Source: a phage. Taken from it: a DNA stretch of 64,000 bases. Under the pieces are notes generated by a model. The model saw only the letters and a program-made list of their open reading frames with translations. It ran no database searches and had not been told where the DNA came from. Position numbers and translations under genes: made by a program. Location: the NCBI GenBank assembly GCA_032986305.1, contig GCA_032986305.1_3672.1; one strand, 5' to 3'. Below are positions 27,650-55,559 of the stretch, one piece after another (positions within the stretch are counted from its first letter, which is position 1; the number at the start of each line of letters is the position of its first letter).

Positions 27650-27726
27650 GTGGTCTCCACGGAGTGATTCGAACACTCGACCTCCTGATCCCAAATCAGG
27701 CGCTCTACCAAGCTGAGCTACGCGGA
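27650..27726 (-). tRNA. tRNA-Pro (anticodon UGG)
   Basis: hand-folded cloverleaf: acceptor CTCCGCG/CGTGGAG, T-loop TTCGAAT, anticodon loop TTTGGGA, CCA encoded. Confidence 0.8.
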
Positions 27727-27737
27727 GTATTTACTAT

Positions 27738-27812
27738 TTGGTGGCCCTGGGTGGAATTGAACCACCGTCTGGCGATTATGAGTCGCTTGCTTGAACCTTC
27801 CAGCTACAGGGC
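27738..27812 (-). tRNA. tRNA-Met (anticodon CAU; elongator or Ile-lysidine type)
   Basis: acceptor GGCCCTG/CAGGGCC, T-loop TTCAATT, anticodon loop CTCATAA, CCA encoded. Confidence 0.75.
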
Positions 27813-27813
27813 C

Positions 27814-27889
27814 TTGGTGCTGATGGCAGGACTTGAACCTGCAACCTATTGATTACAAATCAATTGCACTACCAATTGTGCTACATCAG
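27814..27889 (-). tRNA. tRNA-Thr (anticodon UGU)
   Basis: acceptor GCTGATG/CATCAGC, D-stem GCAC/GTGC, anticodon loop TTTGTAA, T-loop TTCAAGT, CCA encoded. Confidence 0.8.
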
Positions 27890-27894
27890 CAAAA

Positions 27895-27993
27895 AGGTGC
27901 TAGGCGGTGGAATCGAACCACCTATGTATTCAACGACTACCTCGTCTATTTTCAGGATTAAAAATCCTCGCCCTTGCCAAAGGGCTTACCTAG
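27895..27993 (-). tRNA. atypical tRNA-like gene, possibly tRNA-Lys (anticodon UUU) with ~30-nt extra region; may be a pseudo-tRNA
   Basis: perfect 7-bp acceptor pairing GCTAGGT/GCCTAGC, canonical T-arm GGTGG-TTCGATT-CCACC, D-stem GCCC/GGGC, 4-bp anticodon stem with loop TTTTTAA, but ~99 nt long and no CCA. Confidence 0.35.
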
Positions 27994-28091
27994 CTCAGTA
28001 TGTTGACCATGTTGCTAGTCGGCGATGACGACTGTAACATTTGATAATCCGGTTCTGCTTCCGGCTTTCGCTTAATTACAAGGTCAACAAT

Positions 28092-28182
28092 GTGGCGGAG
28101 AGTAATGGAATCGAACCATCATCGAGTCATCCTCAATGGGACGGTTTTCAAGACCGCTTGAGCACCATTGCTCCCTACCCTC
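28092..28182 (-). tRNA. tRNA-Ser (anticodon UGA), long variable arm
   Basis: acceptor GGAGGGT/ACTCTCC, anticodon loop CTTGAAA, extended variable arm, discriminator G, CCA encoded. Confidence 0.7.
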
Positions 28183-28189
28183 CTTTATA

Positions 28190-28218
28190 AATTATACTGA
28201 TAATGACACTGATTTTCG
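28190..28218 (-). promoter_or_regulatory. sigma70-like promoter upstream of tRNA-Ser
   Basis: minus strand TCGAAA-N17-TATAAT, -10 ending 7 nt before the tRNA 5' end. Confidence 0.4.
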
Positions 28219-28296
28219 AGCAGTTAGTGACTAGTATAAACGACGATAAATATCAATGCCATTATCTGTATTATTTACGCATCTAAAAATATAAAT

Positions 28297-28383
28297 TTGG
28301 TGGGGAGTGGTGGAGTCGAACCACCCGAGTCGCAATGACAATAGATTTACAGTCTACACCGCTACCTCTACGGGATAACTCCC
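28297..28383 (-). tRNA. tRNA-Tyr (anticodon GUA)
   Basis: acceptor GGGGAGT/ACTCCCC, anticodon loop CTGTAAA, long variable arm, T-loop TTCGACT, CCA encoded. Confidence 0.75.
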
Positions 28384-28387
28384 CAAT

Positions 28388-28462
28388 TTGGCACCCCGTA
28401 CTGGACTCGAACCAGTGTCAACGGCTTAGAAGGCCGCTGCTTTATCCACTAAGCTAACAGGG
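28388..28462 (-). tRNA. tRNA-Arg (anticodon UCU)
   Basis: anticodon stem-loop GCGGC-CTTCTAA-GCCGT, T-arm ACTGG-TTCGAGT-CCAGT, CCA encoded. Confidence 0.7.
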
Positions 28463-28559
28463 CACTGGGTGGCTTTCTTTTACACCTTAGCCGCCAGAAA
28501 AGGTGGGAGACCATGTTTACAATATTACACTGTTAAGCAAAGTTTGTCAAGAAAATATT

Positions 28560-51118: not shown

Positions 51119-51397
51119 ATGAGCTGTGAAAAATCTTTTTTCTTTATTATTTACGGTAAAGATAACTGCCCACATTGTGTAAGAGCAAAAGAATTTGCAG
51201 TCAGTAAAGGTCTGCCTTTTGTATATAAGACACTTGGCGAGGGTTACACAAAAGAAGAGCTTATTGAGAAGTGCAGTCCAATCGTACCCAGAACGTTGCC
51301 GCAGATCTTCTTAGAAAGCAATCTTGAAAGTGCCCATATAGGCGGTGCCGACGATTTCATCTCTTTTGTTAAGAATGGTTTTGGAGAGAAAAAGTGA
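51119..51397 (+). CDS. glutaredoxin/NrdH-like redoxin
   Basis: CPHC active-site motif (..YGKDNCPHCVRAKEF..). Confidence 0.7.
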   Translation: MSCEKSFFFIIYGKDNCPHCVRAKEFAVSKGLPFVYKTLGEGYTKEELIEKCSPIVPRTLPQIFLESNLESAHIGGADDFISFVKNGFGEKK

Positions 51398-52254
51398 AAG
51401 TTGTAAAACGGGACGGTAGAGAAGAGGTCTATAACGGAATTAAGGTGATCAAGGCGGCAGAGTCCGCCTTACTTGAGTCTGGACATACTGAAGAAGAAGC
51501 TTACCGGATCGCCTGCGCGGTTAATGAAGTTGTTGCTAACAATCTACCAACCGACCAGTGCACGATCTCTGTAAAAAATATCCATATCCTTGTTGAAGAC
51601 GCTCTTATGGATATGGGTTTAAAATGTGCAGCCAGAGAATACATCCAGTATAGGCAGACAAGAGATAATAACAGAGAGGCAGGTGGAAAACTGCTTGCAG
51701 ATATTAGTGGCTTCTTGGATCGCACTTGTGATGAATTTACAAAAGAAAACGCAAATAAGCCTACCAATCATGTACACACTCATCGTGACCTGCTTGCAGG
51801 CATCCTTAGCAAACACCTTGCATCAACACAGATCCTGCCAGACCGTGTCTCAGAAGAGCACAATAAAGGCTTCATCCATGTGCATGATCTTGACTACTTG
51901 ATCAGTCCGTTAACAAACTGTTGTTTGGTAAATTATCCAGATATGTTGGAAAACGGATTCAACATTGGTAACGCCCATGTCAGTAAGCCGAAGTCAATAG
52001 GGGTTGCAACAACAATCCTTAGCCAAATTTCTAGTGCAGTAGCTAGTGCTCAGTATGGGGGTCAGACTATGAGCCATATTGATCATTATCTGGCACAGTA
52101 TGCTGAGGCGACCTATGAGAAGAATCTTAAATTTTGCCAGGAACACTGGTTGCCAGATGCTGAGACTGTTGCAATGCAAATGACAGATAAAGACGTATTT
52201 GACAGCATGCAGACTTTGCTCTATCAAATCAATACGTTAACCTCTGTCAACGGT
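51394..52254 (+). CDS. nrdD: anaerobic ribonucleotide reductase NrdD, exon 1 (GTG start)
   Basis: N-terminal ATP-cone-like MKVVKRDGREEVYNG..; reading frame continues into exons 2 and 3 after intron removal. Confidence 0.7.
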
Positions 52255-52568
52255 TAACAAACTGGCCGTTTTAAAACTCTGCTAACCTCAGTATGAGGGG
52301 TCAGCTGATCGCTGGCTAACGGGGAACGCTAAGGCGAAAGCTATGCCAATCCCGTGACTAGCTTCACAAGGAGTGAGGCGGTTGTAACGACTAACCTTTT
52401 GGTGTAGGGATTATGGAAGATTCCGAAACGCAGAGGTCTGATTAAGAATCACACGGTGTGATTTCAGGCAAGAGATAGTCTGGCCTTGTGGAAACATAAG
52501 GGTGGGGACCGCAAACCCCTTTTATCACATTAAGTTTAGGTCTGGACACCTCAGTATTTGGTAGAATG
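52255..52568 (+). mobile_element. group I intron 1 in nrdD (ORF-less, ~314 nt)
   Basis: non-coding insertion between in-frame nrdD segments; R-like AACGACTAACC (52386-52396), S-like AGATAGTC (52473-52480); 5' exon ends in GGT, intron ends AATG; homologous to the other two introns. Confidence 0.55.
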
Positions 52569-52811
52569 ATTACCAAAAACTACTTGAAAGTCCACAAAAT
52601 GGGTCTTGGTGAAGAATGTATCACACCTGTGTTCCCTAAAGTGCTGTTCTTCCTAGAAGAGGGTGTCAACATGAACCCTGGAGATCCTAACTATGATTTG
52701 AAACGTTTAGCTCTGGAATGCTCTGCAGAGCGGATTTATCCTGACTTTGTTTCTGTTCCACTAAATCGTAAAGTGACAGGCTCGACAGATGGCAAAGTAA
52801 CGAGCATGGGT
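52569..52811 (+). CDS. nrdD: NrdD exon 2
   Basis: encodes ..VFPKVLFFLEEGVNMNPGDPNYDLKRLALECSAERIYPDF.. matching recalled class III RNR sequence; ends in GGT before intron 2. Confidence 0.6.
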
Positions 52812-53573
52812 AAACTATAACTGCTCATGTAAAATCTATCTAAACGGGGAAACTCCAGAACGGACAATCCCGTGCTAAACGTAACAGAACTCCTGACCAA
52901 GAGGAGTCCTGAAATGAGAAAACAAATTCGTGATTTTGAAGGTTATGAAATTGACGAGATGGGCAATGTTTATTGCACCCGCTACGAAAATGAAAGAATT
53001 ATTCATTCGTGGGAAGAGATAAACACAGGTTACCGTCTTGTTAGGATACGCAAGAACAAAAAGACTGTTTGCCTAAGGGTTCACAGACTTGTTGCTGAAG
53101 CGTTCTTACCAAATCCAGACAATTTACCCTATGTTAAGCACAAAGGGGACAACAGGAAAGATAACAGTGTATACAACCTTGAGTGGGGAGCTTGCCCAGA
53201 CAATACGCAAGAAGGATACAACAACAACTGTTATGCTTTTTACACAAGATGCCACGGTGTGAAAGCCACCAACAAATTAACTGGTGAGGTTTTCCACTTT
53301 AAAAGTCTGAGATGTTGTGCTGATGTTTTAGGAGTGGATAGAAAAAGAATATCTGCTATCCTGAAACGTGGTGCGCCTAATAACTATGATTACGAGTTCT
53401 GTTACGAAATGCCTAACGACTAACCGTGATGAATGTAGCGGTGTAGGGTGTAAGCCGATGACACTCGAAATGGTAGACACACTAAGTGTGAAGATATAGT
53501 CTGATCTGCATGGGAACATGCAGCAGCACGTAAAGGTGCGGGGGTGGACTTGCGAACCACCCTGAACATAATG
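52812..53573 (+). mobile_element. group I intron 2 in nrdD, carrying an HNH homing endonuclease ORF
   Basis: R-like AACGACTAACC (53415-53425), S-like AAGATATAGTC (53491-53501); 3' core near-identical to terminase intron; exons rejoin as ..TSMG|CRSFL.. Confidence 0.65.
52915..53423 (+). CDS. HNH homing endonuclease (intron-encoded)
   Basis: GAGGAG RBS; motif ..RVHRLVAEAFLPNPDNLPYVKHKGDNRKDNSVYNLEW..; stop codon lies inside the intron R element. Confidence 0.7.
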
Positions 53574-54539: not shown

Positions 54540-54569
54540 TTGACAGAAGCCACAAGGATGTGGCATACT
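54540..54569 (+). promoter_or_regulatory. sigma70-like promoter
   Basis: TTGACA-N18-CATACT. Confidence 0.4.
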
Positions 54570-54602
54570 TGGCTAATCTATGAGAACCAAGAGGGATCAA
54601 AG

Positions 54603-55559
54603 ATGCCTAGAGGAAAACAACTTACAACTGAAGAATTTACAAAAAGAGCTAGAGAAGTACATGGCGATAAATATGACTATTCAAAAACCGTATATAAAAC
54701 TGCTAAAAGTAAGGTTGTAATTGTATGCCCTGTTCATGGTGAGTTTACGCAGATCGCTGGACATCATATCCTTGACGGTAGTGGGTGTCCTAAGTGTGGT
54801 AGAGTGCCAGTAGGCAATAAGCTTAGAAACGATTCTAGTGATATTATCAAAAAATTTGTAAAAATCCACGGTGACACCTATGATTATTCTAAGGTTGAAT
54901 ATGTTAACTATAAAACTCCTGTAAAAATTGTATGCCCTGAGCACGGAGTGTTCTTGCAATCCCCATCTAACCATTTGAAAGGCCAAGGGTGCCCTGAGTG
55001 TAGTAAACTCATTAGCGCAGCAAAAAGGAATAAAGGCCCTGAATTCATAGAAAGAGCCAAAGAAATCCATGGCGATAAATATGACTACTCTTTTGTAGAT
55101 TATATGACTTGCGAAGATAAGGTAGAGATAATCTGCAACACTTGTGGAAATCACTTCACCCAGACACCTTCTTGCCACCTGTCTGGTCGTGGATGCCCTA
55201 AATGTGCCAAAAACGGTTTCTTATCTCACAACTATGGGAAGCTTTACCTCATGGTTGATAACTTAGAAGCGCCAACACTTATGAAGATTGGTGTGAGCGT
55301 CAATGTAGAAGCGAGGAAGGGAAGGATATTAAGAGCATCCAAGAAGGCTGGTGCAGGTATTTATGATCTCCACATAGTAAAAACATGGGGCGGATCGACT
55401 GAAAACATGCTGAGTGTAGAAAAATCTGTGCATGAAGCCTTCAATAAGTATAAAATAAACTTCTCTAAAGTATTTAGTGGAAGCACTGAATTCTTTCACT
55501 ACAGACCTGAAGTGTTTAGCATAGTGGAAGCAGTATACAAAGAGATCTGTGGTAAATGA
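54603..55559 (+). CDS. free-standing homing-endonuclease-like protein: three zinc-finger repeats plus C-terminal T5orf172/GIY-YIG-related domain (tentative)
   Basis: three repeats of HGDKYDYS..C(P)..HG.F..H..G.GCP.C; C-terminal ..GKLYLMVDN..KIGVS..HIV..; between nrdD and nrdG. Confidence 0.45.
   Translation: MPRGKQLTTEEFTKRAREVHGDKYDYSKTVYKTAKSKVVIVCPVHGEFTQIAGHHILDGSGCPKCGRVPVGNKLRNDSSDIIKKFVKIHGDTYDYSKVEYVNYKTPVKIVCPEHGVFLQSPSNHLKGQGCPECSKLISAAKRNKGPEFIERAKEIHGDKYDYSFVDYMTCEDKVEIICNTCGNHFTQTPSCHLSGRGCPKCAKNGFLSHNYGKLYLMVDNLEAPTLMKIGVSVNVEARKGRILRASKKAGAGIYDLHIVKTWGGSTENMLSVEKSVHEAFNKYKINFSKVFSGSTEFFHYRPEVFSIVEAVYKEICGK

Follow-up and report, generated by a model that had tools for sequence, protein, structure and literature searches.

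That phage genes for ribonucleotide reductase contain group I introns is textbook knowledge. The T4 nrdD (sunY) intron, which has the endonuclease I-TevII, is an experimentally established group I intron and lies in the same host gene, and in the same conserved NrdD region, as the intron described here. Related phages differ in whether they have it (PMC2988022). The intron of T4 nrdB, with its defective I-TevIII, is mobilised in trans by MobE (PMC2988022). In phage rV5, terL is divided by introns into three segments, and one of these introns contains a homing endonuclease (Kropinski et al., 2013; PMC3606486). The rV5 terL introns belong to the same phage group as the present intron and to a different gene; the rV5 genome paper reports introns in terL only and does not mention an nrdD intron (PMC3606486), and a search of the literature found no paper on nrdD introns of rV5-like phages.

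The window, i.e. the whole stretch of 64,000 nucleotides analysed here, is a Vequintavirus genome sequence (rV5-like coliphage). The genus Vequintavirus comprises rV5-like myoviruses with genomes of ~137 kb, and around the intron the sequence has 93-98% identity with Escherichia phages from this genus. The gene set around it consists of nrdA, nrdB, a glutaredoxin gene, nrdD and nrdG, and the interrupted gene is nrdD, the gene for the large subunit of the class III (anaerobic) ribonucleotide reductase. With a probability of roughly 90%, positions 52255-52511 are a group I intron (intron 1) of subgroup-IA-type architecture that interrupts nrdD, has no endonuclease gene and is likely to descend from a form that lost one. 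The nrdD exons and the three introns of the window are as follows.

51394-52254, plus strand: nrdD exon 1, ending ...TLTSVNG with the codon GGU (ORF list and translation)
52255-52511, plus strand: nrdD intron 1, an ORF-less group I intron of 257 nt, last base G52511 (omega-G)
52512-52811, plus strand: nrdD exon 2, QTPFITLSLGLDTSVFGRMITKNY...GKVTSMG, lacking a start codon upstream of the ATG at 52566
52812-53573, plus strand: nrdD intron 2 (762 nt), between Gly387 and Cys388 (MG and CRSF), with an HNH ORF at 52914-53423 in P6
53574-54536, plus strand: nrdD exon 3 (ORF list; comparison with T4 NrdD)
about 25803-24804, minus strand: terL intron, the third intron of the window, with an HNH ORF at 25684-24989

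Intron 2 splits the MGCRSF loop, which we take to be the catalytic cysteine loop on the basis of the T4 NrdD structure; it is absent from phages AlexBoehm and Mangalyan.

Intron 1 is inserted between Gly287 and Gln288 of NrdD (NG and QTPF). It is preceded by a U (the last base of GGU) and its terminal base is G, as the splice-site rules for U and G prescribe, and its first codon, immediately after the GGU of exon 1, is an in-frame UAA. In phage phiWec191, which has no intron, exactly 257 nt are missing at this site, where ...GTCAACGGG is directly followed by CAAACCCC... and the protein reads without interruption ...SVNG-QTPF.... The omega-G boundary was placed at G52511 because of the reading frame and of this 257-nt gap. 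A boundary shifted by one base (52254-52510) would reproduce the intron-less sequence GGG-CAA literally, and both versions encode Gly; it was rejected because it leaves a G before the 5' splice site and a C as the last intron base.

The original prediction had described an ORF-less group I intron at 52255-52568, 314 nt long. The start at 52255 was correct, and so was the absence of an ORF (no ORF of at least 60 aa was found inside intron 1 by the ORF scan), but the 3' end was not: the intron ends at G52511, and the last 57 nt of the predicted element are NrdD coding sequence. The predicted end coincides with the first ATG of the downstream ORF (52566-52568). Positions 52512-52565 are in-frame exon 2 and encode the conserved NrdD residues QTPFITLSLGLDTSVFGR, followed by MITKNY.... 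These residues align with NGQTPFVTITFG of T4 NrdD, and the start of exon 2 prolongs the T4 NrdD alignment without a gap (the T4 sequence there is EVNTLFSSNGQTPFVTITFG); exon 1 is 44-46% identical to T4 NrdD (tblastn). The exon 2 frame is open from 52500 and is closed upstream by a UAA at 52497. The element thus lies inside nrdD and is no intergenic spacer between two genes, the outcome that would have refuted the original prediction.

The Rfam group I model (RF00028) matched 52245-52501 with 29.2 bits (E = 1.9e-4 in a 7-kb search). This score is below the gathering cut-off of 50, which is a detection threshold and not a structural criterion. At the gathering threshold Rfam found no intron in the window, and the introns were detected in E-value mode alone. 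It should be noted that the two HNH-bearing introns of the window also reached just 35.3 bits, so that the generic Rfam model evidently under-scores phage introns of this kind.

The secondary structure assigned to intron 1 is listed below, all elements being on the plus strand; P2 is absent. The term ORF+ allele denotes the endonuclease-bearing form of the intron found at the same site in other phages.

52249-52270: P1, exon AACGGU (52249-52254) paired with the internal guide GCCGUU (52265-52270), loop UAACAAACUG
52277-52282: P3, 5' strand CUCUGC, pairing with GCAGAG at 52430-52435
52286-52298: hairpin hpA, CCUCA-GUA-UGAGG, from the minimum-energy fold
52300-52316: hairpin hpB, GUCAGC-UGAUC-GCUGGC, from the minimum-energy fold, covarying (A-U / G-C / G-U)
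52319-52355: P4 (ACGGGG/UCCCGU) around P5 with a GAAA tetraloop cap, invariant between alleles; the segment quoted in the original prediction
52356-52383: P6 (GACU/GGUU) and P6a (GCUUCAC-AAGGA-GUGAGGC), the latter covarying with respect to the ORF+ allele
52389-52393: P7, 5' strand GACUA, forming a pseudoknot with UAGUC at 52476-52480, invariant, collinear with the T4 nrdD intron core
52394-52424: P7.1 (ACC-UUUU-GGU) and P7.2 (GGGAUU-AUGGAA-GAUUCC), between P7 and the 3' strand of P3
52430-52435: P3, 3' strand GCAGAG
52436-52469: P8, outer GUCUGA/UCAGGC and inner AAUCACA-CGG-UGUGAUU, the site of a 534-nt HNH ORF in the ORF+ allele
52470-52480: J8/7 (AAGAGA, 52470-75) and P7 3' strand, together AAGAGAUAGUC (Rfam consensus AAGAUAUAGUC)
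52484-52501: P9, CCUUGUG-GAAA-CAUAAGG with a GNRA loop, U-A to C-G and G-U to G-C with respect to the ORF+ allele
10 nt ending at G52511: 3' tail of the intron
52504-52519: possible 4-bp helix over the 3' splice site, intron GGGG (52504-52507) with exon-2 CCCC (52516-52519)

The pseudoknotted P7 and the exon-dependent P1 were read from the sequence and placed by hand. All the other helices assigned by comparison (P3, P4, P5, P6a, P7.1, P7.2, P8 and P9) are recovered in the unconstrained minimum-energy fold of the 257 nt, whose energy is -89.2 kcal/mol as against -71.4 +/- 4.5 for dinucleotide shuffles (z = -3.98; none of 200 shuffles was as low). The P3 placement of the Rfam alignment (CGCUG-GC/CG-CAGAG) is mismatched, and CUCUGC/GCAGAG, which is perfect, covaries and is present in the free fold, was preferred to it.

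Base pairs were counted in an alignment of five distinct sequences, namely four ORF-less variants and the diverged ORF-bearing allele. Standard pairs occupy 98.4% of the cells, compared with 35-44% when the 3' partners are slid, and five pairs are changed on both sides (one each in P3, hpB, P6a, P8 and P9); such values were reached by none of 500 shuffles. P3, for example, is CUCUCC/GGAGAG in the ORF+ allele (G-C to C-G) and contains a U-G wobble in AlexBoehm. Since MAFFT misaligned hpB, P6a, P7.2 and P8 in the ORF+ row, the counts for these helices are conservative. On the other hand, the covariation comes essentially from two lineages, ORF-less and ORF+, and therefore each compensatory change counts as one event. 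Within the ORF-less population, four of the five stem substitutions keep a wobble pair, and the fifth (U to C, in L001) opens the closing pair of hpA. The helix over the 3' splice site is GGAG/CUCC in the ORF+ allele, a single covariation event that gives no more than a hint of its existence; P10 is 2 bp only. The P3-P9 core, whose absence would have refuted the original prediction, both folds and covaries.

In P1, a U52254-G52265 wobble is present at the 5' splice site, and the guide sequence tracks the exon among the alleles: GCCGUUU is found with AAACGGU in the ORF-less sequences L001, L004 and L007, and GCCGUUG with CAACGGU in the ORF+ alleles. In the phage of the window the ORF-less guide is found together with a CAACGGU exon; exon 1 there fits the guide of the ORF+ allele rather than that of the intron itself, and as a result P1 is limited to 6 bp with a terminal C-U mismatch. 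This combination suggests a recombinant flank.

Subgroup IA is reportedly defined in the classification of Michel and Westhof. One of its features, the presence of P7.1 and P7.2 between the 5' strand of P7 and the 3' strand of P3, is found at 52394-52424; a short J3/4 of about 3 nt is not, as 36 nt with two hairpins separate CUCUGC from P4. The T4 nrdD intron has the same layout as intron 1, with GACUA, P7.1, GUAGGG-P7.2-CGAAAC, the 3' strand of P3, P8 and AAGAnAUAGUC (AAGAUAUAGUC) in this order. The two introns differ, however, in several respects. The insertion site in T4 is 32 nt upstream, in the Tyr codon between AYEY and EVNTL, whereas that of intron 1 is between NG and QTPF. In the T4 intron the core is followed by a gene for a GIY-YIG endonuclease, while intron 1 lacks an ORF and the gene in its ORF+ allele is of the HNH type and lies in P8; in addition, the T4 intron has no hairpins between P3 and P4, where intron 1 has two.

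The distribution of the intron was examined by BLAST against 50,697 phage records. With intron 1 alone as the query, 43 records were matched: 14 contain full-length ORF-less copies (99.2-99.6% identical), in 28 the alignment is limited to nt 1-141 (86.7% identity), and one Bacillus phage record has 50 nt of P4-P5 in common with intron 1. A query consisting of the spliced junction matched 195 records, 118 of them at 80% identity or more. In this close set (~118 records), 14 have the ORF-less intron, 28 the ORF+ intron and ~76 an empty site; among the matches listed, all 77 of the more distant Phapecoctavirus- and Justusliebigvirus-type records are uninterrupted. The comparison with intron-plus and intron-minus relatives that had been recommended for this site thus found both, and the ORF+ allele as well. 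Intron 1 is one of three alleles at the nrdD site in Vequintaviruses, i.e. empty, ORF-less and HNH-bearing. The presence of intron 2 is independent of that of intron 1, and all combinations of the two occur.

The ORF+ allele (FFH2, Mangalyan, phita32, slur16, FV3 etc.) is identical to intron 1 in insertion site, P4-P5, P7 and J8/7. It is 797 nt long, 617 nt standing in for positions 52396-52469 of the window, and its 534-nt ORF in P8 encodes a 177-aa HNH_3 / I-HmuI-like protein (Pfam). It also differs from intron 1 in the guide GCCGUUG, in P3 (CUCUCC/GGAGAG), in the length of P7.1 and P7.2 (8 bp and 9 bp, against 3 bp and 6 bp in ORF-less intron 1) and in other synonymous exon-2 bases beside the site. 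The true ORF-bearing counterpart of intron 1 is this allele, which is the same intron and occupies the same position of nrdD in 28 records of sister phages; its HNH gene is in P8, that of intron 2 in P6.

The original prediction had left open whether the ORF-less intron lost its endonuclease gene or represents the ancestral form, and of the two it is the first that is favoured here, on the strength of a putative remnant of the HNH gene in P8:

52444-52463, plus strand: AAGAATCACACGGTGTGATT, putative remnant of a lost HNH gene, compared with AAGAATCAAACTATGTGATT (codons 9-15 of the HNH gene of the ORF+ allele)

The remnant lies in the inner P8 hairpin and is identical at 17 of 20 positions to the collinear HNH codons of the ORF+ allele, a score equalled by 4 of 5000 shuffles. 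The corresponding codons encode ...SNYVI within Y-x-IDE-x-GNVY, an N-terminal motif that is also found in the HNH protein of intron 2; the two HNH proteins are homologous (29% identity, E = 3e-8). Because the motif is shared with the intron-2 protein, the 20-mer would belong to the endonuclease gene and not to the ribozyme. On the evidence of the 20-nt remnant and of the shorter P7.1 and P7.2, loss of the HNH gene followed by trimming of P7.1, P7.2 and P8 is favoured by about two to one over the ancestral form. Such a history fits the cycle of gain, decay and loss discussed for homing endonucleases (PMC2988022). It would not have been a recent one-step deletion, because the ORF-less and ORF+ cores have diverged by 13%; there are also several indels, and the ORF-less form is no simple derivative of the known ORF+ form.

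The opposite polarity, in which the ORF-less intron would be ancestral and the HNH gene would have been inserted later in the P8 loop, in the lineage of FFH2, Mangalyan, phita32 and others, its frame being extended upstream through a pre-existing P8 hairpin, is unlikely, although it has some points in its favour. In metagenomic relatives of this intron lineage the ORFs are located after P6 and not in P8, so that P8 must at some stage have been free of an ORF; the 17-nt hairpin is present in both alleles and could be structural; and the two alleles, 13% apart, are not connected by intermediates among the 42 records. However, the 20-mer covers codons of a motif characteristic of the endonuclease family, and the reduction of P7.1 and P7.2 in the ORF-less form is what would be expected of secondary streamlining. 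The choice between loss and gain hangs on the one 20-nt similarity, by which loss is favoured.

As regards mobility, intron 1 shows the pattern of a mobile intron, being patchily distributed at one site in close relatives and more conserved than its flanking exons. A comparison was made with the diverged IMG/VR contig L007. Intron 1 is 98.4% identical in the two phages, with 2 changes in 109 unpaired positions, while the last 600 nt of exon 1 are 79.3% identical overall and 51.5% at third codon positions; for exon 2 the values are 90.7% and 76%, respectively. Considering that exon 1 is near-saturated at synonymous sites, an intron identity of 98.4% points to recent horizontal spread, and intron 1 appears, from these divergences, to be far younger than the surrounding nrdD in at least one of the two phages. 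The high conservation of the intron could in part reflect constraint rather than transfer; yet the loops are conserved too.

Having no endonuclease gene apart from the 20-nt remnant, intron 1 cannot home by itself. It probably passed from one phage to another, diverged one through recombination during mixed infection, possibly aided by an endonuclease acting in trans, the candidates being the HNH proteins of the ORF+ allele and of intron 2, which lies only 300 nt downstream. Intron 1 probably moves by ordinary recombination, by repair of breaks made by the ORF+ HNH protein, or by co-conversion with intron 2. The T4 nrdB intron is similar to intron 1 in being an intron of a phage ribonucleotide reductase gene that is incapable of homing alone, and it is by analogy with it that a trans route is proposed. 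The T4 intron, however, keeps a truncated ORF, whereas the ORF of intron 1 is gone save about 20 nt, and here mobilisation in trans is what we infer. If this is true, the spread of intron 1 would be a naturally occurring example of intron transfer that is assisted in trans and needs no endonuclease of the intron itself. In addition, the series of empty, ORF-less and HNH-bearing alleles, which occurs in easily grown coliphages, combined in all possible ways with an independent second intron at a distance of 300 nt, provides a natural test of the endonuclease gain-decay-loss cycle and of homing in trans.

Intron 1 is in all probability spliced from the nrdD RNA, as judged from its boundaries and predicted structure. 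The transcribed RNA would fold into a core composed of P3-P8/P7 and P4-P6; exogenous guanosine would attack after U52254, which the guide GCCGUU holds in P1; exon 1, once released, would then attack after the terminal G52511, joining GGU to CAA; and removal of intron 1 and intron 2 would restore a single NrdD frame of 707 codons. In the diverged phage L007 the spliced NrdD, from which two introns are removed, is likewise intact, with 707 aa and 88% identity, and because its changes are almost all synonymous, phages that carry the introns appear to keep the gene under selection. The authors of the BASEL collection independently annotated the nrdD CDS of AlexBoehm as a two-piece join (PMC8594841), and the length of the join fits an intron of 257 nt. 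Intron 1 adds no new biology by itself, and the join is already annotated in at least one set of GenBank records.

It is, by contrast, highly improbable that intron 1 is a non-splicing relic or spacer and that nrdD is a gene in pieces, with separate translation of the fragments before they assemble. A gene in pieces has reportedly been found in phage Aeh1, where nrdA is split by mobE. In the present phages, such an organization could be read into several GenBank records that list nrdD_1, nrdD_2 and nrdD_3 as separate CDSs, and into the fact that splicing of intron 1 is something that we infer. However, because there is no in-frame start before the ATG at 52566 and the frame is closed by the UAA at 52497, separate translation of exon 2 would result in the loss of 18 conserved residues (QTPF...). 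Moreover, the helices of the ribozyme are maintained by compensatory or wobble changes, the boundaries fit the U/G rule, and intron 1 is exactly what the intron-less alleles lack. Splicing is thus the preferred reading, and it has a practical value for annotation: many rV5-like GenBank records present nrdD as two or three genes with a spurious ATG start, while the correct product is a single protein of 707 aa, obtained after removal of the 257-nt and 762-nt introns.

As to the relationship with the other introns of the window, the short motifs that the original prediction reported as common to both endonuclease-containing introns are real, but they are found in intron 2 and not in the terL intron. 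There are exactly two copies of CAATCCCGTG in the window, at 52347 and 52865; TAACGGGGAA is found at 52317 and AAACGGGGAA at 52842. Introns 1 and 2 have in common only five collinear core motifs of 9-13 nt (AACGGGGAA, CAATCCCGTG, TAACGACTAACC, GGTGTAGGG and AAGAnATAGTCTG), outside which nothing aligns (best E-value 0.009). No significant stretch was detected between intron 1 and the terL intron, the best being the 8-nt AACGACTA (E = 2.9), and no significant sequence similarity between intron 1 and the T4 nrdD intron. The core of intron 2, in contrast, is about 79% identical to that of the T4 nrdD intron over 120 and 60 nt (E = 2e-23 and 8e-9), and intron 2 and the terL intron have in common a 49-nt P9-P9.1 stretch (94%). 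The 3' core of intron 2 matches 597 phage records by BLAST, compared with the 43 of intron 1. By these sequence comparisons, the terL intron belongs to the T4-like lineage of intron 2 and not to that of intron 1, and intron 1 is a separate lineage, so that the idea of a degenerate copy of the neighbouring introns has to be abandoned. That intron 1 is a decayed copy of intron 2 or of the terL intron, transposed to a new site, is extremely improbable, for although the five motifs are exact and in the order of intron 2, the alignment does not extend beyond them, neither the terL nor the T4 nrdD intron gives a significant match while intron 2 clearly resembles T4, intron 1 has no P9.1/P9.2 and has two extra hairpins before P4, the HNH protein of its ORF+ allele is only 29% identical to that of intron 2 and is encoded in a different loop, and the two introns have very different numbers of matching records.

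The J3/4 junction of group I introns normally forms core base triples. In intron 1 the 5' strand of P3 is not next to P4, as hpA and hpB intervene. A search of the literature found nothing relevant on hairpins between P3 and P4 of group I introns. A scan of IMG/VR for the pattern returned one contig with the exact pattern and 3 viral and 12 metagenomic loci with a relaxed pattern. The introns of metagenomic and Bacillus-phage origin (L008-L019) have a P4-P5-P4' segment, ACGGGGAAnGCUAAGnCGAAAGnUAnGCCAAUCCCGU, that is near-identical to that of intron 1, and also the same order of elements, i.e. P3 5' strand, AAC, hairpin, GUGU, hairpin, GCUAA and P4. Their P3 covaries (CAUGGUG / CGCCAUG, UGUGGUG / CGCCACA, CUCGGUG / UGCCGAG and ACGCAUU / GGUGCGU). 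Outside P4-P5 their similarity to intron 1 is low; they are located in other genes of AT-rich phages, and most of them, unlike intron 1, have GIY-YIG, HNH or other ORFs directly 3' of P6. As far as can be judged from sequence, therefore, the two-hairpin module with a covarying P3 seems to recur in introns of gut, rumen and Bacillus phages together with different endonuclease families. One may tentatively go further and regard intron 1 as a distinct IA-type branch, with a two-hairpin J3/4 domain and P2 apparently replaced, that has spread among Vequintaviruses in ORF-less form and with assistance in trans; taken as a whole, this proposal is rather doubtful. If undescribed, the hairpin pair between P3 and P4 may be of interest to specialists in RNA structure. 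One of the relatives, L018, apparently has no P8, although its 3' half was judged by eye, and the introns L015 and L016 begin with UAAC or UAAU, like intron 1.

At window positions 52246-52270, the guide GCCGUUU of the ORF-less group I intron of nrdD (intron 1) lies opposite the exon-1 flank GUCAACGGU, a flank type that otherwise accompanies the ORF+ allele (the counterpart with an HNH gene in P8) and the intron-less alleles. In this phage, the combination leaves P1 with a terminal C-U mismatch; other carriers of the ORF-less intron 1 have the flank GUAAACGGU and a P1 of 7 bp. The mismatch between guide and flank suggests that recombination broke the sequence no more than a few bases away from the splice site of intron 1.

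The segment J3/4, which connects the 5' strand of P3 to P4, holds a conserved pair of hairpins (window 52286-52316 in intron 1). The same pair was found in an intron family from metagenomes and Bacillus phages (L008, L009 and L015-L018), whose members carry differing endonuclease types, and covariation in P3 spans the whole family. One relative of the intron-1 lineage is itself ORF-less:

about 2060-2400 of Ga0172378_10064487 (L018), minus strand: ORF-less intron

Here, only ~5 nt separate the apparent 3' strand of P3 from J8/7, and P8 therefore seems to be absent; either this intron is degenerate, or its 3' half has been misread in the present analysis.

Two other group I introns of the window are occupied by HNH genes:

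52812-53573: nrdD intron 2, 762 nt, with an HNH ORF (52914-53423) located in P6
about 25803-24804, minus strand: intron of the terminase large-subunit gene, ~1000 nt, with an HNH ORF (25684-24989)

The insertion point of nrdD intron 2 is exactly the Gly387/Cys388 boundary, in the MGCRSF loop. Its core is ~79% identical to that of the T4 nrdD (sunY) intron, but the insertion sites differ. A diverged IMG/VR contig (L007) contains nrdD intron 2 without the ORF (251 nt); the P6a hairpin of this copy differs very little from that of T4. The P9-P9.1 region of nrdD intron 2 shows 94% identity over 49 nt to that of the terminase-gene intron, whose ends were set only by the reading frame and by the requirement for U before the 5' splice site and G as the last intron base; the predicted exon junction reads ...SFIGATI|RDNPEYL...

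The following ORF was also found:

54540-55559: free-standing ORF of 339 aa, between nrdD and nrdG

It encodes DUF723/treble-clef zinc ribbons and a T5orf172/MUG113 (GIY-YIG-like) domain, and occupies the same intergenic position as T4 mobC. Phage 241Ecol014PP, although otherwise collinear, lacks this ORF, which is probably a further insertion of the homing-endonuclease-like kind.

About 20 records titled 'Campylobacter phage', with C. jejuni as the host (MG065644, MG065655, MG065658, MG065690 and others), contain nrdD genes 93-98% identical to those of E. coli rV5-like phages and display the same intron polymorphisms; their host assignment, or the purity of the samples, looks doubtful.

A tRNA region was also detected at the Rfam gathering threshold:

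27654-28463, minus strand: cluster of five tRNA genes

Weaker tRNA-like matches are present at 27898-27994 and 28097-28183.
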